A stretch of DNA of 45,740 nucleotides from an uncultured Candidatus Saccharimonadales bacterium (GCA_964609585.1 CAZSRA010000007.1:1-45740), one strand, 5' to 3'; positions 3,016-44,428 are shown, counted from the stretch's first letter. Notes: generated by a model from the sequence alone, not told the origin. Numbers and translations are program-made.

Positions 3016-3365
3016 CGACTGTTGAAATCGGCCGCGCCGCCGAACAGCAGGCAGCAGACTATCTCGCAAACCATGGGTTCAACGTTGTGGGCCGCAATTG
3101 GCGCAATCGCTGGTGTGAGCTCGATATCATTGCCGCGCGCGGCCAGCAGCTACATTTCATTGAGGTGAAATACCGCCGCTCCACGCACTATGGCTATGCC
3201 GCGGAGTACATCTCGCGCGACAAAACTAATCGACTCACCCGTGCAGCCCTCGCCTGGAATCAAGCTCATCACTACGTGGGACCCTACCAGATTGATGTCA
3301 TAACCGTGGAGGGTGCCGCCGCAAACCCCCATATTTCCCATCTTGAAAACGTCATTTCCGCTTAA
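3012..3365 (+). CDS. yraN: YraN/UPF0102 family putative endonuclease
   Basis: GRAAEQQAADYL, NWRNRWCELDIIA, FIEVKYR; GTGA overlap with rnhB. Confidence 0.92.
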   Translation: MTTVEIGRAAEQQAADYLANHGFNVVGRNWRNRWCELDIIAARGQQLHFIEVKYRRSTHYGYAAEYISRDKTNRLTRAALAWNQAHHYVGPYQIDVITVEGAAANPHISHLENVISA

Positions 3366-3392
3366 AAGAACGCGGGCGCTTGCCGACCCTTA

Positions 3393-5942
3393 CTACCTCC
3401 GCTCAGCCAAAAACGCCTCAATCTCAGCCCGGTCGCGCTCGTACCAGTCGGCCTTTAGCTCCACACTTTCAACAGCCTGTGCCGCTGGTCGTTTAGTGCC
3501 GGGATGGGGGTGGCTTTCAAAAAACGTTTTAATCTCCATCGCCATCGTGTGAGTTGCAAAACCCATACCCGCGTAAGCCGGGAAGCGCTCAAGCATGTGC
3601 CCCCCTTCGCCGTACCGGTCCAAAAATAGTTGCCAATGCTCCTTTACAAACGTCCACGTCATCTCGCGCGCCTCGCGACTTCGAAAGCCTGATGCAACCA
3701 CCATAAAGATGTCTTGGGGCCGCACATCGGGCGAAATCCCTAGATCCAAAAACCGTTGGATGAGCTCTGGTTTGCGGAATCTGCCCAGAGCCGCCAGTAA
3801 GCTCATTTTTGCCTGCGGCGTTTCTTCTGCGCGGTAATGCTTCAAAATTTCTTCAAATTCTCGCTCGCCACCGTCCCGAGCAACCGCAAACAATATTGCC
3901 CCCCTCAAATCCGGGTTAAGTTCTTCGCCGAGCAAATAGCCCTCAAATCGCCGCTTTGCCTCAGCCGTCGCTTCCTTGTCTCCAAAGAGCACGGCCTGCA
4001 TCAAGACCACCGGCCTCATTAACGTATCAAATGGTGATTCACTAGCCTTCGGCTCCCAGCCTAGCCGGTCTAGGTTTGGCTTCACCAGCCAATCACCAAA
4101 CCGATCGAGCTCGTCGCGCAGCGGAGCATCCTCAATAATCGCTCGCACCTCAGCCAGTCCGTCGCTAACGGCGCACCACACTACATAGTCGGGTTCTTCG
4201 CGTAGTGAGGCGAGCAACGCGAGTCCCGCCGCCGAGCCCGTGCGTCCCGCTGCGATGTTCGCCCATACATCGCTCACAATCCCGAACCGGTCTCTCACGC
4301 CTAGCTGCTTGTCCTGCAAGGGGCCGCCGAGTGCCTGAATCATGGGTTGCGTATAGAGGGTCCGGAAAAAAGCCGTCTGGCCTGGGTTCGGCTTAAACCA
4401 CGCCGAAGCCATCACTTCCGGATCCACCTCGGTCGGTTCACGAATCAGTTGTGGTGCAGTTTCGACGCTGTCCGGAAGTGCCATTGAAAGGGGAAGCGGC
4501 CACAACTCACTTGCCTTACTGGCTTTTTTAGCCTCTCTGGGCGAGCTATAAAACCGCGCCTGCTTCACAAGTCCATCTTCAAACGACACCAGCGGATAGC
4601 CCGGCTGACCCGTCCAGGCCGACATTACTGCGTCCACCGGCTTGCCCGACACCTCAGCCAGCGCCGTCCATAAATCGTGAGTCACCGTATTGCCGTATTG
4701 GTGCCGCATCAAATACGTGTGCAAGCCTTTACGAAAATCCTCGGCTCCCACATATTGGTGGATCATATTAATAATACTTGCCCCCTTATAATATGAAATC
4801 GCATCAAAGATCTCATCCAAAGACCGCGGGTCGTCCACAGGTACCTGAATCGGATGCGTATTCGCCAGGCCGTCCAAATCCATGGCGTAAGCAAGCGTGC
4901 TACTAGCAAACTCGTCCCAAGCTCCCCACTGCGGAAACAGCTTGTCCATAGCCAAAACTTCTACCCACGTCGCAAATCCTTCATTGAGCCACAGATCTTC
5001 CCACCAGCTGAGCGTTACCAAGTTGCCAAACCATTGATGAGCTAGCTCATGGGCCACCACTTGCACAATGCGCTGTTTATTGGCCAGCGACGTTTTGAAT
5101 TCATCCAGCAACAAATCGGTTTCGCGGTACGTCACCATACCCCAGTTCTCCATTGCCCCCGCCCCAAAATCCGGAATAGCCACCATATCCAACTTCGGCA
5201 AAGGGTAATGAATCCCAAAATAATCATTATAAAAAACCAAAACTTGTACGGCCGTTTCGAGGGCAAAGTTTAGCTGGCCCGCCTTGCCGGGTGTGGCGTA
5301 AGCTCGTACGGTTGTGCCGTCGGTGGTTACGTTCTCCACATATTCAAACTCACCAGCCGCAAACGCGAGCAAATACGTGCTCATTTTCGGCGTTGGGCCA
5401 AACTGTACGGCTTTTCGACCGCCATCTACCGGCACCTCGCTCACTACCTGCGCATTCGATATGGCCGTTAAGCTTTCCGGAATTTGCAGCGTTACTTCAA
5501 AAATAGCCTTAGCTGAAGGCTCGTCGATGCAAATAATTGCCTCGCGCGCATGCACCGCTTCAAACTGAGTCGTCACCAGCCACTTTTCCTGGCCTTCATG
5601 GGTATAGCTACTGCGGTAAAATCCATGCAGTGAGTCTTGGACCTCCCCAGAGTAATCCAAATCCAAAGTGTGCTTACCGGCCGGGATTTCGTCTTCAAAG
5701 CTAAACGTTACGGTCTCGGCTTCTTTGCTAAGCACAATCGTGGCGGCCTTCAGGCGGTCGTCAAGCTTAGCCTTCGCTACCTTCAAGTCCTTGGCATGCA
5801 GCGTCAGCTCACGGCTCGGCTTTGCCAGCACGAACACTATCTCTTCCAGGCAGCGGAACGAAAATTTCTCCACGTCCACATCAAGATTCAATCGGTAATT
5901 TTCCGGAACAATGCGTTCGAGCAGTCGAGCCACTTTTGCCAT
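3393..5942 (-). CDS. pepN: M1 family zinc aminopeptidase (PepN / ERAP1-like C-terminus)
   Basis: TQFEAVHAR, GAMENWG, HELAHQWFGNLVT...WLNEGFA (HEXXH+E), ISYYKGAS. Confidence 0.96.
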   Translation of the reverse strand: MAKVARLLERIVPENYRLNLDVDVEKFSFRCLEEIVFVLAKPSRELTLHAKDLKVAKAKLDDRLKAATIVLSKEAETVTFSFEDEIPAGKHTLDLDYSGEVQDSLHGFYRSSYTHEGQEKWLVTTQFEAVHAREAIICIDEPSAKAIFEVTLQIPESLTAISNAQVVSEVPVDGGRKAVQFGPTPKMSTYLLAFAAGEFEYVENVTTDGTTVRAYATPGKAGQLNFALETAVQVLVFYNDYFGIHYPLPKLDMVAIPDFGAGAMENWGMVTYRETDLLLDEFKTSLANKQRIVQVVAHELAHQWFGNLVTLSWWEDLWLNEGFATWVEVLAMDKLFPQWGAWDEFASSTLAYAMDLDGLANTHPIQVPVDDPRSLDEIFDAISYYKGASIINMIHQYVGAEDFRKGLHTYLMRHQYGNTVTHDLWTALAEVSGKPVDAVMSAWTGQPGYPLVSFEDGLVKQARFYSSPREAKKASKASELWPLPLSMALPDSVETAPQLIREPTEVDPEVMASAWFKPNPGQTAFFRTLYTQPMIQALGGPLQDKQLGVRDRFGIVSDVWANIAAGRTGSAAGLALLASLREEPDYVVWCAVSDGLAEVRAIIEDAPLRDELDRFGDWLVKPNLDRLGWEPKASESPFDTLMRPVVLMQAVLFGDKEATAEAKRRFEGYLLGEELNPDLRGAILFAVARDGGEREFEEILKHYRAEETPQAKMSLLAALGRFRKPELIQRFLDLGISPDVRPQDIFMVVASGFRSREAREMTWTFVKEHWQLFLDRYGEGGHMLERFPAYAGMGFATHTMAMEIKTFFESHPHPGTKRPAAQAVESVELKADWYERDRAEIEAFLAERR

Positions 5943-6028
5943 AGGTACAGTCTCGCAATTAGTTTTGTCTAGTATAACGTATTCCCGTGCATTACCCAGG
6001 TGAACCGGAGTTTAATAAGACACAAAAT

Positions 6029-23601: not shown

Positions 23602-24735
23602 CTATCCCGTCTCTGAATGCTCAAGCGCACGAATAAATAATTCAATATCTTTAGTTTGCAAAACTGGATCTTCAAGGCCTGCATGAAAACGAACGAGTGT
23701 ATTTTTCGGCGCATCAAGCCGACTGCTTAATTCGGTTGGCTGAAATGGCAGAACGAGACTGTGGGTCCCGCCCCATGACTCTCCAATCTTAAATACGGAT
23801 AGTGTAGAAAATAACCTATCAAGCTCAGCGTCTGTATATACTCTATCGAGCTCTACGCTGAATAAACCGTTCGTACCTGTGATGTTGCCTTTCTGACCAT
23901 CTACGAAGTAAATCCTCGGTATCTTTTTGGAATTTTTCATAGAATGCAGTAATCTCCTGGCGTTATTCCCATGTGCAAGTAGTCGTACTTTTAGAGTTTC
24001 CAGTCCACGCTGCACGAGCATAGCTGAAAAGGGTGATACAGTGTAGCCGTGAATCCGGTGGTAATAGCTTAGTTTTTTAAACAGGGTTTCCGACCTTGTG
24101 GTGACTGATCCCATAAATACGTCACTATAGCCAGCCGGATATTTTGTGAGACTGAGAATACTTATATCTACCCCATAATCCAGTGGATGCGACAAAACAC
24201 CGGCTGCCCATGTGTTATCTTCTGATGTTAATATTTCTCGTGATTTAGCTACTTCGACGACTGCATCTATATCAGTTACTTCAAATGTGGCTGATCCTGG
24301 AGATTCAATATGAATGAGCTTGGTTGTGTCGCGAATGGCCCGTTTTAGTGTGGAGAGGTCCTTTACGGAATACATGTCGTATGAGATTCCGAAGCGCTCC
24401 TGTAAATACTGCGCATATCGCCGAACAGGTGCATAGACAATATCCGGAATAAGCCAATGATCGCCCGAAGATAGCAACGCACTAAGCGCAATCAACGCAG
24501 TTAACCCACTGGGAAACAATAGCGTATGGCTACCATGCTCAAGTGCAGAAATAGAATCCTGCAGCTTTTGTAATGTCGGGTTTCCCTGGAGGCCATAGCC
24601 ATTGTCTACCCCGCTCACCACTTGGTTGATAAGCGTTGGTTTTCCGGCGCCTGCCGCTCTGTAGTCATGCAAACTGTCGAAGTACAGGCTAGTGGTTAGT
24701 TGTAATGAACGAGTAGTGTGATCGTTATTTCCCAT
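23602..24735 (-). CDS. metC: Cystathionine beta-lyase-like PLP enzyme (Cys/Met metabolism family)
   Basis: YGLQGNPT, LFPSGLTA, IESPGSATFEV, DNTWAAG, SLTKYPAGYSD (PLP lysine), IGESWGG..SL, VRFHAGLED. Confidence 0.85.
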   Translation of the reverse strand: MGNNDHTTRSLQLTTSLYFDSLHDYRAAGAGKPTLINQVVSGVDNGYGLQGNPTLQKLQDSISALEHGSHTLLFPSGLTALIALSALLSSGDHWLIPDIVYAPVRRYAQYLQERFGISYDMYSVKDLSTLKRAIRDTTKLIHIESPGSATFEVTDIDAVVEVAKSREILTSEDNTWAAGVLSHPLDYGVDISILSLTKYPAGYSDVFMGSVTTRSETLFKKLSYYHRIHGYTVSPFSAMLVQRGLETLKVRLLAHGNNARRLLHSMKNSKKIPRIYFVDGQKGNITGTNGLFSVELDRVYTDAELDRLFSTLSVFKIGESWGGTHSLVLPFQPTELSSRLDAPKNTLVRFHAGLEDPVLQTKDIELFIRALEHSETG

Positions 24736-24738
24736 GAC

Positions 24739-25773
24739 CTACTTCCACTTTCCGAGGAACGCTTTTTCATGCTGTCGCACAACTTTATTCGCCCCGAGAA
24801 TGCCGTGTTGTGTCATGTCGGGCGAGTATCTACTCGCCGGTACGATACGGCCGAGTGCTTCAGCCATTGACCGAACACTATGTGGTGCTCCGCCGCAGCA
24901 GATACCAATGTAGTTAACGCCATACTCCTGCGCTTTAAGTGCGAAATCTGCCATTTCGTTACGCGTGCACAAAAAGTGATCAAGCGACAGCGGGAACGCT
25001 CGTTCGCCTTTGTATTTAAGATATTGAAAGGCCGGGAATTGAGGTGTGGTGCGATACGGAACGGGTTGGGCTGCGATTGGACAAGATACGGCCTTTCGCA
25101 GCTTCTTGAGCAGCGGAAGCATTGTATTGGGGCCGGCTATGCAGTTAAACCCGACTACATCAGCACCTTTTTCTTCAAGGATTCGACAGCCTTCAATCCA
25201 GTCGTATCCATCTTTGCTCTGAGGGTACGTAGTTGCAAAAGTGATAAATGCTGGTAAGTTATATTTCTTGATAACTTCCAGGGCGATCAGCGCCTCTCCA
25301 ACATATTCAATGGTTTCGGCAATAATGAAGTCGACCCCTTCTTCTGCTGCCCATCGTACTTGCTCGTCATACATCTGGCGCACTTCCTCGGAACTTTGTT
25401 CTTTATTGTTGGGGTCATAGACCCAAGTGTTGCAAATATTACCGGCTACAAGCGCATTACCCTCTTCTGCAATTTCCCTTGCAATGCGAACAGCCTGTCT
25501 ATTGAGTCGTTCGAGATCTTTTTCACGGTCGATAACTCGCAATTTATCTCGATGAGCATAATACGTAAACGCTACCATTACTTCACTGCCTGCTCGCAAG
25601 AATTCACGGTGTAACTCGCGGAGTGCATCTGGATAGTCGAGCACGACTTCGGGCACATATGCGCCAGCCTTTAGATAACCCCGGCGTTCAAGTTCAAATA
25701 AATATCCTTCGGCTCCTAGCACAGCACCCTTTTGCAGCCGTTCTAGTATGTTTTGCTTTACTGGTGATGTCAT
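24739..25773 (-). CDS. Homocysteine S-methyltransferase, betaine-homocysteine methyltransferase (BHMT)-like
   Basis: EGYLFELERRGYLKAG, LHREFLRAGS, Zn ligands GFNC and GICCGGAPH; start reassigned to ATG 25773 after GAAAGGA. Confidence 0.92.
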   Translation of the reverse strand: MTSPVKQNILERLQKGAVLGAEGYLFELERRGYLKAGAYVPEVVLDYPDALRELHREFLRAGSEVMVAFTYYAHRDKLRVIDREKDLERLNRQAVRIAREIAEEGNALVAGNICNTWVYDPNNKEQSSEEVRQMYDEQVRWAAEEGVDFIIAETIEYVGEALIALEVIKKYNLPAFITFATTYPQSKDGYDWIEGCRILEEKGADVVGFNCIAGPNTMLPLLKKLRKAVSCPIAAQPVPYRTTPQFPAFQYLKYKGERAFPLSLDHFLCTRNEMADFALKAQEYGVNYIGICCGGAPHSVRSMAEALGRIVPASRYSPDMTQHGILGANKVVRQHEKAFLGKWK

Positions 25774-25802
25774 AGAAATCCTTTCATACGTTATCGAACG
25801 CA

Positions 25803-25830
25803 ATTAAATAAACCGGCCCTAGGCCGGTTT
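25803..25830 (-). terminator. Attenuator terminator upstream of the methyltransferase
   Basis: Minus strand AAACCGGCC-TAG-GGCCGGTTT then ATTTAATT. Confidence 0.75.
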
Positions 25831-25849
25831 GCGTTCAAGTATTTTGGGA

Positions 25850-25924
25850 CTATGAAAGCGGCCTAGGGCGAGACATGGGCATAGGCATCATCACAGTTTG
25901 GGCGTTATGGTGTTTTGTTTGCAT
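25850..25924 (-). CDS. Met-rich leader peptide 1, MQTKHHNAQTVMMPMPMSRPRPLS (24 aa; not in the ORF track)
   Basis: Read directly from the reverse complement; 4 Met in 6 codons; codons 19-22 contain GCCCTAGGCCG, the exact complement of the terminator 5' arm and loop. Confidence 0.8.
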   Translation of the reverse strand: MQTKHHNAQTVMMPMPMSRPRPLS

Positions 25925-25961
25925 GAGTAAATCTCAAGAGCTGTCGATAGTTGTTGTTAGT

Positions 25962-26375
25962 CTACGGGTGCAGCTTTAATCCGTGGACGATTTTGTCGAA
26001 GGTTTTACGATCTGCACGTATGGCTATCCCAACGATAGTAAATGCGCTGTCCCTTAGTGTCTTGACGACTGCTCGATTATCTATATCGTTGTCTGTTTTG
26101 AACATTCCTTCCGCATAAATTGCCGGTTTTACTCCACGATTTAGAGCCCGGTCTTTTGTCCGGATAAGGTGCTCTTGTGGTGCGGCATAGATAAAGACGG
26201 GTTGTACGATCAGTGGCAAATATTTGTGGTTGGTGGCGTCTTCATAGTCCTCTCCTATGCTTTCGGGCGCTGATGCCGCTATTCCAGTTGCCAAGAAGGC
26301 TGTGACATTGAGCTTCTGCCAGTCCAGTAGGTCGTCCCGGATCACGATGCCTACTTTAGTATCATGTGTTGCCAT
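25962..26375 (-). CDS. DUF2000 family protein (peptidyl-tRNA hydrolase II-like fold)
   Basis: KVGIVIRDDLLDWQKLNVTAFLATGI, YEDA...YLPL..QP, ...DKIVHGLKLHP; SD AAAGGAG. Confidence 0.8.
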   Translation of the reverse strand: MATHDTKVGIVIRDDLLDWQKLNVTAFLATGIAASAPESIGEDYEDATNHKYLPLIVQPVFIYAAPQEHLIRTKDRALNRGVKPAIYAEGMFKTDNDIDNRAVVKTLRDSAFTIVGIAIRADRKTFDKIVHGLKLHP

Positions 26376-26393
26376 AGCGAACTCCTTTTACAA

Positions 26394-26421
26394 TAAAAAA
26401 CCTCCGTTTTGCAGCGGAGGT
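26394..26421 (-). terminator. Attenuator terminator upstream of DUF2000
   Basis: Minus strand ACCTCCG-CTGCAAAA-CGGAGGT then TTTTTATT. Confidence 0.85.
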
Positions 26422-26451
26422 AGTTGTCGACTTGATTTATTCTACGACAAA

Positions 26452-26514
26452 CTAAAACTCCGCCTCACGGTGGGGCATCATTGCCATCATCATATTGCGG
26501 GTATTGTTAGTCAT
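26452..26514 (-). CDS. Met-rich leader peptide 2, MTNNTRNMMMAMMPHREAEF (20 aa; alternative in-frame ATG at 26523)
   Basis: 5 Met in 6 codons; 3' end GCGGAGTTTTAGTTTGTCG pairs with CGACAACTACCTCCGC, which includes the terminator 5' arm. Confidence 0.85.
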   Translation of the reverse strand: MTNNTRNMMMAMMPHREAEF

Positions 26515-26521
26515 TGGCTTC

Positions 26522-26550
26522 ATTCTATGTTGCTAGCGGTATTTTATCAA
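26522..26550 (-). promoter_or_regulatory. Promoter of the Met operon, giving a leaderless or near-leaderless leader-peptide mRNA
   Basis: TTGATA-N17-TAGAAT, 7 nt upstream of ATG 26514. Confidence 0.7.
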
Positions 26551-26597
26551 GTGATCGATATCTAAAACCTCAACATCTTCAAGGCCAACTAAAAGTT

Positions 26598-26621
26598 CTG
26601 ACATTGTATATACAATGTCAG
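26598..26621. promoter_or_regulatory. Perfect 24-bp palindrome, probable AbrB/MazE autoregulatory operator
   Basis: CTGACATTGTATATACAATGTCAG directly upstream of the mazE remnant. Confidence 0.7.
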
Positions 26622-26638
26622 TAACCGGAGGACATAAA

Positions 26639-26923
26639 ACGAAAACTACAACCTAAGTAAAAATGTGGGGCAATAGCCTGGCGATCCGCATTCCTTCTCG
26701 GGTAGCCCGAGATCTAGGGCTAACAATCGATAGCCAGATAGAAATCGCCAGCGATGGCAGCACCGCCACCATAAAACGCGAAGAGAACCCCCGCCTATCC
26801 TTAGAAGAAATTAGTCAAACCCCTCGACATACTATCCGACCATTGCAAAAGAGTTCGAATGAAAGCCGTTCAAGGGCACCAAGACACTATTTTTTTATGC
26901 TTCCACTAGACATGAATTGTTGA
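26639..26923 (+). pseudogene. mazE: Decayed AbrB/MazE/SpoVT antitoxin gene; no toxin gene follows
   Basis: GGAGG-N7-ACG AAA ACT ACA ACC TAA GTA AAA ATG TGG GGC AAT AGC (start appears as ACG, in-frame TAA); WGNSLAIRIP..A..LGL motif; similarity lost after LSLEE. Confidence 0.7.
26839..26881 (+). repeat. Direct repeat copy 1 (43 bp)
   Basis: ACCATTGCA-AAAGAGTTCGAATGAAAGCCGTTCAAGGGCACCA; differs from copy 2 by 1 indel and 2 substitutions. Confidence 0.9.
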
Positions 26924-26987: not shown

Positions 26988-27329
26988 TTAAAATAGTTTG
27001 CTTCCCAGCGGCACTTCGCGTTCGGGCTGCGACAGAACCACATTGCCATGTGCATCCGCGAAACCAAGCGTAAGGCTTTCTGATATGAACGGACCTATCT
27101 GCTTGGGCGGAAAGTTCACAACTCCCATCACGAGCCGCCCGATCAACTCTTCTTTTGTATAATGTTTGGTTATTTGAGCCGACGAGCGCTTTAAGCCAAT
27201 TTCAGAGCCGAAGTCGATCGTAAGTTTATAGGCTGGTTTTCTTGCTTGAGGAAAATCCTCAGCGGCAATAATTTTCCCGGTTCGAATATCTATTTGCTCA
27301 AAGTCTGCGTAAGTGATGGTATTGTTCAT
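26988..27329 (-). CDS. csaA: tRNA-binding protein CsaA/Trbp111 (homologous to the MetRS C-terminal domain)
   Basis: DFEQIDIRTGKII, KPAYKLTIDFG, SSAQITKHY, VVNFPPKQIGPFISESLTLG. Confidence 0.92.
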   Translation of the reverse strand: MNNTITYADFEQIDIRTGKIIAAEDFPQARKPAYKLTIDFGSEIGLKRSSAQITKHYTKEELIGRLVMGVVNFPPKQIGPFISESLTLGFADAHGNVVLSQPEREVPLGSKLF

Positions 27330-37100: not shown

Positions 37101-37133
37101 TAAAACACTTATGCTTATGTTATATTGCTCACT

Positions 37134-37901
37134 ATGAGCAAACCCATATCTACGACAAGTCTTCGCAAACTCAATGCCTTCATGGCGATCCTGCATGCTG
37201 CCCAAGCCATCGCTATTTTGCTTTTAGCAAAAGACTTTAAGCTCCCTCTCACCATTGCGTATTTGCAGTTTAACCCTGCTACCCGCGGTCTAGAGACTCA
37301 CATTCACACGCTGGGCCAAGTACCCCTCGCCGCGCTGATAGTCGCATTCTTTGCCCTCTCGGCTCTAGCGCATCTTTTTGTAGCCACCGTGTATCGTCGT
37401 CGATACGAGGCCGATTTAGCCCGTAGTATCAACTATATTCGCTGGATCGAATATTCTCTGTCGGCAAGCACCATGATGGTCGCGATCGCCATGCTTGTTG
37501 GCGTGTACGACGCGCCGTCTCTGGGTATGATCTTCGTCCTCACTGCCGGCATGAACCACATGGGGCTCATCATGGAAGTGCACAACCAAACTACGAAGCG
37601 CACAAATTGGCTCAGTTTTCGAATTGGAACCGTGCTCGGGGTAATGCCTTGGCTCGTTATCCTGGCCTACTTCCTCTCAAGCGCCGCCTATGGCTCTACG
37701 CCGCCCACCTTCGTCTACTGGATTTTCGTCTCCATTTTCATCTTTTTCAACTGCTTCGCCATCAACATGGTCCTGCAATACAAAAAAGTAGGTCCTTGGC
37801 GCGATTATCTCTACGGCGAGCGGGCTTACATTATCTTAAGTTTGGTTGCCAAATCGCTTCTAGCCTGGCAAGTCTTTGCCGGCACTCTCCGGCCAAATTA
37901 G
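37134..37901 (+). CDS. heR: Heliorhodopsin
   Basis: LHAAQAI, AHLF, NYIRWIEYSLSASTM, YGERAYIILSLVAKSLLAWQVF (retinal-binding Lys), 7 TM. Confidence 0.96.
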   Translation: MSKPISTTSLRKLNAFMAILHAAQAIAILLLAKDFKLPLTIAYLQFNPATRGLETHIHTLGQVPLAALIVAFFALSALAHLFVATVYRRRYEADLARSINYIRWIEYSLSASTMMVAIAMLVGVYDAPSLGMIFVLTAGMNHMGLIMEVHNQTTKRTNWLSFRIGTVLGVMPWLVILAYFLSSAAYGSTPPTFVYWIFVSIFIFFNCFAINMVLQYKKVGPWRDYLYGERAYIILSLVAKSLLAWQVFAGTLRPN

Positions 37902-44131: not shown

Positions 44132-44428
44132 ATGGACACATTCGCAGCTCTCGCTGATCCAACTCGCCGTAACATTTTCGAATACATTGTTCGTGGTGAA
44201 ACATCGGTAAGTGAGATCGTGGAGCGGTTTTCATTTAAGGCACCAACGATCTCGCAACACCTCAAGATATTGAAGGAAGTCGGCCTCGTGCAATCGCGCG
44301 CAGATAAACAGAAGCGTTTGTATACCGTACGAGCGGATGGCTTAGCCGAAGTGGAAAGTTGGGTTCAACTACAACAAATGGTTATGTCTGAGCGCTTAGA
44401 CGCCTTAGAGAGACACCTAATAAAGTAA
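44132..44428 (+). CDS. ArsR/SmtB-family regulator
   Basis: FAALADPTRRNI, PTISQHLKILKEVGLV. Confidence 0.93.
   Translation: MDTFAALADPTRRNIFEYIVRGETSVSEIVERFSFKAPTISQHLKILKEVGLVQSRADKQKRLYTVRADGLAEVESWVQLQQMVMSERLDALERHLIK

Follow-up and report, generated by a model that had tools for sequence, protein, structure and literature searches.

Two short upstream open reading frames (uORFs) with runs of methionine codons, each followed by an intrinsic terminator, lie on the minus strand of a 45,740-nucleotide (nt) stretch of DNA from an uncultured Candidatus Saccharimonadales bacterium (GCA_964609585.1 CAZSRA010000007.1:1-45740; hereafter the window). Leader 1 (W1) precedes a DUF2000 gene, and leader 2 (W2) precedes genes for a homocysteine S-methyltransferase family protein and a pyridoxal phosphate (PLP) enzyme. 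We consider it likely that both are ribosome-mediated leader-peptide transcription attenuators that sense Met-tRNA. Transcription attenuation by leader peptides is textbook for the trp, his, leu, thr, ilv and phe leaders. The sequence features of such an attenuator are found here, namely a short open reading frame (ORF), a cluster of Met codons, a terminator, an antiterminator that a ribosome could mask and, DUF2000 aside, downstream genes related to methionine. The Met-sensing interpretation was put forward in a first-pass annotation made from the DNA alone, and the comparative evidence and predicted folds described below lend it support. The parts of the two leaders are as follows.

26522-26550, minus strand: predicted sigma-70-type promoter of leader 1, with TTGATA (26550-26545), a 17-nt spacer and TAGAAT (26527-26522)
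26452-26514, minus strand: uORF1, from ATG at 26514 to the TAG ending at 26452, peptide MTNNTRNMMMAMMPHREAEF
26423-26451, minus strand: small hairpin TTGTCG...CGACAA, which stacks within the leader 1 antiterminator loop in the predicted folds and is kept in the related leader L169
26395-26421, minus strand: intrinsic terminator 1 (segments 3 and 4), ACCTCCG-CTGCAAAA-CGGAGGT (26421-26400) followed by TTTTTT
25850-25924, minus strand: uORF2, from ATG at 25924 to the TAG ending at 25850, peptide MQTKHHNAQTVMMPMPMSRPRPLS
25802-25830, minus strand: intrinsic terminator 2, AAACCGGCC-TAG-GGCCGGTTT (25830-25810) followed by a T-rich tail

Direct reading of the minus strand confirmed the Met-run uORFs that the first-pass annotation had placed in both intergenic regions, at 26514-26452 and 25924-25850. 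In leader 1 the -10 box ends 7 nt before the uORF1 ATG at 26514. A further in-frame ATG at 26523 falls inside the predicted -10 box (TAGAAT, 26527-26522) and is therefore probably not transcribed. The Met run of uORF1 (26493-26476) has ATG codons at 26493-26485 and 26481-26476, amounting to 5 Met in 6 codons. It is flanked by segment 1, ACCCGC (26502-26497), and segment 2, GGCGGAG (26464-26458), the latter able to form 6 Watson-Crick pairs and one G.U pair with CTCCGCT (26419-26413) in terminator 1. This terminator has a 7-bp stem and a hairpin energy of -10.8 kcal/mol. In leader 2, uORF2 sits 35 nt past the DUF2000 stop codon and carries 4 Met in the 6 codons of its run (25891-25874). Its segment 2, CCCTAGGCCG (25868-25859), is perfectly complementary over 10 nt to CGGCCTAGGG (25826-25817), with 14 of 1000 shuffles giving a duplex as strong, and terminator 2 has a 9-bp stem with a hairpin energy of -13.8 kcal/mol. 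The claim that the 3' codons of each uORF are complementary to the 5' arm of the following terminator thus holds in that both complements are present. The further claim that the two leaders share no nucleotide similarity needs qualifying, in that ATGATGCC, encoding Met-Met-Pro, is common to both, but they are otherwise unrelated.

In the mechanism that we propose, transcription would start at or next to the uORF start codon to give a leaderless mRNA, and a translating ribosome would follow RNA polymerase into the uORF, presumably with coupling and pausing. With Met-tRNA plentiful, the ribosome would pass through the AUG cluster, reach the uORF end and cover segment 2, so that the terminator (3:4) would form and transcription would stop, with some efficiency, ahead of DUF2000 in leader 1 and ahead of the methyltransferase and PLP enzyme genes in leader 2. 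With Met-tRNA scarce, the ribosome would stall where the AUG run begins, so that segment 2 would stay free; stalling in leader 1 would also melt a hairpin between segments 1 and 2. Free segment 2 would then pair with the terminator's 5' arm, letting polymerase read into genes that make or spare methionine. The signal read in such a methionine response would be the supply of charged elongator tRNA-Met.

We looked for the same arrangement in contigs that carry the nearest homologues of DUF2000, the PLP enzyme and the methyltransferase; their loci are given L-numbers. Five further distinct Met leaders were found in related Patescibacteria contigs, all of the same two sequence types as the window leaders, bringing the total of intact distinct leaders to seven. 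Type A, that of leader 1, has the terminator CCTCCGC/GCGGAGG, with a GCGGAG-type complement facing CTCCGC; type B, that of leader 2, has the terminator ACCGGCC-TAG-GGCCGGT, with CCCTAGGCCG as segment 2. The related leaders are as follows.

L169: type A, uORF 662-733, DUF2000 91% identical, peptide MANDTRSMMIAMMPHREAEFWLS, with the run kept as MMIAMM
L081, L082 and L083: type A, DUF2000 84% identical, peptide MIAQATARSMMMPRHT
L170 and L171: type A, DUF2000 77% identical, peptide MVTFKPQAMDMMMPPRPSRSQSCVS, heading a four-gene operon for a 290-amino-acid (aa) protein, a B3_4 protein, a cupin and DUF2000
L086 and L087: type B, L086 uORF 2170-2241, peptide VITIITNQTVVMPMSMFSPRPIS, before genes for the PLP enzyme, a cupin, DUF2000 and a hydrolase
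L181: type B, uORF 4853-4915, peptide MFVCNSQIMMMVMLCPRPIS, before the methyltransferase gene alone

The uORFs of these relatives have 3-5 Met in 5-7 codons. Alignments within each type show that the Met cluster, the position of the stop codon, the paired segments and the terminator are kept, with variation in the other codons and the spacers. The changes between W1 and L169 are mostly non-synonymous, as expected if only the sensing codons of the peptide matter, and among W2, L086 and L181 the Met codons move in position at constant number. The same two leader types move among one small set of genes, the contexts being DUF2000 alone, the methyltransferase alone and the two operons listed above. 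The support for the alternative helices comes from comparison of the two types: these are two unrelated sets of terminator stems, each with its own matching complement at or just past the 3' end of the uORF. The strength of the complement duplex was equalled in 2-14 of 1000 shuffles for type B and in 12 of 1000 for L170. In a more distant Patescibacterium metagenome-assembled genome (L174), the orthologous PLP gene is instead preceded by an S-adenosylmethionine (SAM)-I riboswitch (RF00162, 2808-2937, 44.6 bits against a cut-off of 44.4) with a terminator, which independently indicates a methionine control point at this position. The L174 riboswitch directly follows split MetE-like genes (Meth_synt_1 and Meth_synt_2) and an MTHFR-like gene.

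Six of the seven intact leaders (W1, L169, L081, L170, L086 and L181) have a promoter matching 9-11 of 12 consensus positions whose -10 box ends 6-7 nt before the start codon, and none of the six has a Shine-Dalgarno (SD) sequence before the uORF. As background, such promoter spacing is shown by 0.54% of ATG triplets in the window and by 2 of 42 genes. With the -10 box this close to the start codon, the uORFs are probably leaderless and translated from the 5' end of the transcript, and promoter spacing by itself places the transcription start probably at the uORF start codon.

We then folded the leaders with a ribosome footprint that masked the RNA from 15 nt before to 12 nt after the first base of the A-site codon; all of these results are thermodynamic predictions. 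In full-length leaders, the terminator helix had a probability of about 0 when the A site was at the first Met codons, and one of 0.7-0.98 when it was at or beyond the last one or two Met codons in W1, W2, L169, L086 and L181. A second set of folds used transcripts cut just before the 3' arm of the terminator, to mimic the moment of decision. When the A site was at the first Met codons, the minimum-energy fold of these cut transcripts contained the antiterminator in 7/7 leaders. The antiterminator was shortened at the last Met codon in type B, and disappeared once the ribosome was on or close to the stop codon in all leaders except L170, in which the stop lies far downstream. The predicted switch thus falls inside the Met run, which was the outcome of the footprint check that the first-pass annotation had suggested. 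Type A leaders have the extra 1:2 hairpin, with segment 1 within a footprint of the Met run, and so reproduce the classical four-segment layout; their predicted default without a ribosome is the terminator. Type B leaders have no strong 1:2 hairpin (a three-segment layout), and their predicted default is the antiterminator, so that polymerase would read through if initiation failed, for example in severe methionine lack.

The same anatomy could in principle arise in other ways. That ordinary terminators and random short ORFs have come together by chance was already disfavoured and is extremely improbable. A strict detector, requiring a short ORF with at least 3 ATG in 6 codons and a perfect-stem, GC-containing hairpin with a T run within 130 nt, returned 2 sites in the window, exactly the two leaders. 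On 100 dinucleotide shuffles of the window it returned a mean of 0.03 sites and never two or more, and on 153 control loci (979,295 bases) it returned 0. Although the complement in leader 1 is short and the element is missing in some relatives, which would fit chance, the leaders recur in five other contigs before the same gene families. We also rejected the idea that the stems belong to a repeat dispersed through the genome: the window contains 4 copies of CCTAGGCC and 8 of CCTCCGC, about as many as expected. When IMG/VR was scanned for the pattern of each leader type, there were 0 matches for type B and 34 for type A, which we attribute to chance because all are within coding sequence or without a T tail. 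A different possibility, which we regard as decidedly unlikely, is that the AUG runs are an untranslated motif of an RNA switch that binds a ligand or a protein, such as an undescribed SAM or Met riboswitch or a protein-dependent attenuator. A terminator with alternative pairing is also the expression platform of riboswitches, the L174 PLP gene has a SAM-I riboswitch at the same position, and ATGATGCC is common to most leaders. However, a search of Rfam 15 at gathering scores found no SAM, T-box, amino-acid leader or other known element at these regions, so that none of the known riboswitches explains them. Even at E values up to 10, the 25600-26800 region gave no SAM or T-box match and only chance-level ones (STnc420, P9, PsrR1 and others); the L174 riboswitch served as the positive control for this search. 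Moreover, the two types share only simple hairpins structurally, every AUG shares its reading frame with a start that lies 6-7 nt past a -10 box and with a stop adjoining segment 2, and Met positions that move at constant number fit codons better than an RNA motif.

Two further alternatives were weighed. In one of these, the uORFs would be translated yet respond not to methionine but to general translation speed or to nascent-peptide arrest at Met-Met-Pro or Pro-Arg-Pro. Met-Met-Pro does occur after or within the run in 6/7 leaders, PRP is conserved in type B, and the relatives L088 and L089 retain ARAPMQ with one Met only. The conservation of PRP is, however, explained by RNA pairing, because PRP is encoded by segment 2 (CCCTAGGCCG); the L181 run (MMMVML) has no Pro; 3-5 Met in 6-7 codons far exceeds normal Met usage; and the downstream genes are Met-related. 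We consider this explanation unlikely. The other places control at translation instead of transcription, as in the poly-Cys small ORFs (sORFs) of mycobacteria (10.1101/834739), and would fit the arms of the type A terminators, which are anti-SD-like and SD-like (CCTCC / GGAGG) with the real SD (AAGGAG) 15 nt downstream. We found no arrangement by which the leaders would act by unmasking a downstream ribosome-binding site: a T run, typical of intrinsic terminators, directly follows each hairpin, no downstream gene has its SD within the hairpin, and the type B stems have no SD-like sequence. Control at translation is accordingly very improbable.

Several observations weigh against attenuation by Met-tRNA sensing itself. 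The complement in leader 1, taken alone, is not beyond chance, with 85/1000 shuffles giving a duplex as strong, and for window uORF2 we found no recognisable promoter or SD sequence; initiation there may be by re-initiation or from a weak internal start. At equilibrium the terminator wins for most ribosome positions in L081 and L170, so that a kinetic argument is needed for these two leaders, in which the switch between antiterminator and terminator appears solely when the transcript is cut before the 3' arm. Covariation is nearly absent among the seven leaders, the exceptions being one A-U to G-C change at the base of the L170 stem and lineage-specific stem extensions; true covariation is scarce because the helices are nearly invariant among few examples. 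Methionine starvation also limits the charging of initiator tRNA. Only seven intact distinct leaders are known, and the organisms are uncultured.

The distribution of the element is a further consideration on this side. In L168 (DUF2000 88% identical) a type A leader at 4914-5014 has decayed: its start peptide MTSKTTAQ, ended by a stop codon, is in a different frame from MDMMM, and the terminator has lost its 5' arm by a deletion between two GCGGAG copies, which probably leaves constitutive read-through into DUF2000. Three relatives with DUF2000 71-74% identical (L088, 458-508; L089, 525-557; L178, 5901-5933) have before this gene a uORF, MR(A/P)TARAPMQ, with a single internal Met that resembles the type A leader of L081 (ATARSMMM). 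A weak hairpin and T6 are kept in L088, and L089 and L178 have no clear terminator. No leader was found upstream in L084, L175 or L091-L094. The metagenome scan contributed at least seven close relatives among the matches listed (L088-L094); among these, L088 and L089 have the single-Met uORF, L091-L094 have none, and the upstream sequence of L090 is too short. In L175 the DUF2000 gene starts 15 nt after a gene (5911-5985) that ARAGORN calls tRNA-Gly(TCC), its identification as tRNA-Trp having been rejected. Upstream of 80 DUF2000 loci taken from GTDB species genomes (identity no higher than 64%; Actinomycetota, Alphaproteobacteria, Chloroflexota and others) we found no Met-run uORF, the sole exception being one long, non-leader ORF in L080, and 17 sampled from these 80 loci had no Met-related riboswitch. 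The link between DUF2000 and Met leaders is therefore confined to the Saccharimonadales-like clade. Thus, as the first-pass annotation had anticipated, homologous loci carry Met-rich uORFs with the same layout before DUF2000, methyltransferase and PLP enzyme genes, but some relatives lack the run or have no leader. The element is real but patchy and is limited to one clade.

On the minus strand the locus runs from the promoter through uORF1, the small hairpin, terminator 1, an SD sequence, DUF2000, uORF2 and terminator 2 to the methyltransferase and PLP enzyme genes, and is bounded by a tRNA-Leu gene on the opposite strand. Its three genes are as follows.

25962-26375, minus strand: DUF2000, 137 aa, the first gene under leader 1 (Pfam PF09391, E 3.8e-35; matches PDB 2GAX by sequence)
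24739-25773, minus strand: homocysteine S-methyltransferase family gene, 344 aa, the first gene after leader 2 (Pfam PF02574, E 1.7e-43)
23602-24735, minus strand: Cys/Met-metabolism PLP enzyme, cystathionine beta-lyase-like, 377 aa (Pfam PF01053, E 4.9e-71)

The methyltransferase start is set at ATG 25773 because the SD sequence GAAAGGA precedes it and a database copy (P0179) has the same length of 344 aa; TTG 25803, given as the start in a mechanical ORF list, would overlap the tail of terminator 2 and was rejected. The protein matches NCBIfam homocysteine/betaine methyltransferase models below their cut-offs. Its stop codon is separated by 3 nt from the start of the PLP enzyme, for which the name metC had been proposed. 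This gene does encode a Cys/Met-family PLP enzyme whose top NCBIfam models are cystathionine beta-lyases, but every score is under the curated cut-off. The nearest relatives of the three proteins are labelled by source as Patescibacteria or Candidatus Saccharimonadales.

The rest of the window is ordinary chromosome, encoding NusA, a Clp ATPase, a RadA-like protein, a penicillin-binding protein, TyrRS, RecG, trigger factor and a heliorhodopsin, the last (37125-37901, plus strand; PF18761, E 3.7e-95) in a Patescibacteria-like genome. A perfect 24-bp palindrome, CTGACATTGTATATACAATGTCAG (26598-26621), lies about 50 nt upstream of the leader 1 -35 box and about 40 nt upstream of an AbrB/MazE-family gene (26663-26923, plus strand; PF04014) that is not followed by a toxin gene; the palindrome is probably the operator of this small DNA-binding protein. 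Just upstream of the locus is a gene for a CsaA/Trbp111-like tRNA-binding protein (26988-27329, minus strand), related to the C-terminal domain of methionyl-tRNA synthetase (MetRS). The -10 box of its promoter (27363-27336) ends 6 nt before the start codon, as also seen at the gene at 44132-44428, and its mRNA is probably leaderless.

Compared with the classical attenuators of Escherichia coli (trpL, hisL, leuL, thrL, ilvL/ivbL and pheL) and the Yanofsky model, the leaders described here have the same uORF with a cluster of cognate codons, the same alternative pairing (four-segment in type A, three-segment in type B), a terminator before the first gene and a predicted decision set by ribosome position. 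They differ in that the sensed codon would be AUG, the uORFs are apparently leaderless instead of SD-led, the host belongs to the Patescibacteria, and the genes are of a salvage type (homocysteine methyltransferase, beta-lyase-like enzyme, DUF2000) instead of a de novo pathway. They share with SAM-I (S-box) riboswitches and Met T-boxes a position before Met genes and a terminator/antiterminator output; these RNAs, however, sense SAM or uncharged tRNA by direct binding, with no need for translation, and neither model matches the window. The leaderless poly-Cys sORFs of the mycobacterial 'Cys ribulon' (Canestrari et al., 10.1101/834739) likewise have runs of codons for a single amino acid, with several independent loci per genome that answer to this amino acid by ribosome pausing, but act on translation, not termination. 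Here the amino acid is different, and the hairpin and U tract that end each leader point to transcription termination. In Deinococcus deserti, leaderless putative leader peptides, with the start codon at the transcription start, are described before tRNA synthetase and amino-acid genes, with Cys (cysS) and Trp (trpEGD) among the examples named (PMC4007540). The start codon would likewise be at the transcription start here, as predicted from promoter spacing. A survey of attenuators (PMC2965389) mentions no Met leader, and Rfam and full-text literature searches found no characterised Met leader-peptide attenuator, in keeping with the first-pass annotation, although predictions may exist elsewhere. 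For a Met leader peptide, the literature searches gave only the 'met leader' of Staphylococcus aureus, which is a T-box and was rejected. In summary, this would be a known mechanism with a new amino-acid specificity, in a new phylum and with a leaderless start, and not a new category.

The regulated genes fit methionine. They include the homocysteine S-methyltransferase and the beta-lyase-like PLP enzyme, and in L172, where the leader position is off the contig, the methyltransferase-PLP pair runs on into genes for a B3_4 protein, MetRS and a tRNA-binding protein. The 290-aa protein encoded by the first gene of the L170 operon (3029-3901) has a sub-threshold Pfam match to SAM_HAT_C (E 1.8e-4, 22.2 bits against a cut-off of 25.5), a family that cleaves SAM to adenosine and methionine; a search of its sequence against the PDB gave no match. 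The AlphaFold model of DUF2000 (predicted local distance difference test score 89) matches 2GAX (template modelling (TM) score 0.92), and the next Foldseek matches are archaeal-type peptidyl-tRNA hydrolases (Pth2; E 6e-5 to 5e-4, TM 0.5-0.65). In relatives, its partners in operons behind a Met leader include B3_4 and cupin proteins. The Pth2-like fold of the model and these partners, with the L172 operon linking the methyltransferase and PLP enzyme to B3_4, MetRS and the tRNA-binding protein, suggest that DUF2000 may be a tRNA-ester hydrolase tied to Met-tRNA metabolism. With less assurance than for the two leaders themselves, we lean towards the view that Saccharimonadales-like Patescibacteria have a methionine 'ribulon', in which leaderless AUG-run sORFs would act as Met-tRNA-sensing attenuators before several operons (homocysteine methyltransferase and beta-lyase, Pth2-like DUF2000, B3_4, cupin and probably MetRS).

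If attenuation by Met-tRNA sensing is correct, these leaders would be the first leader-peptide attenuator specific for Met, and the Candidate Phyla Radiation would gain its first described cis-regulator that senses an amino acid. Methionine is awkward for attenuation because its sensing codon doubles as the start codon. A Met leader that works would extend attenuation to this case and show how the initiation problem is handled; read-through of type B without initiation, if true, would sidestep the block that methionine starvation places on initiation. The leader shared among operons ties DUF2000 with its Pth2-like fold, the B3_4-domain proteins and the cupins to methionine and Met-tRNA metabolism, which suggests testable functions for them. 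A short, modular element of this kind could also find use as a Met-responsive switch for gene expression in these bacteria, which are hard to engineer. Regulation in Patescibacteria has been described as virtually unknown (PMC11665869), and the leaders would provide a first concrete gene-regulatory mechanism for this group.

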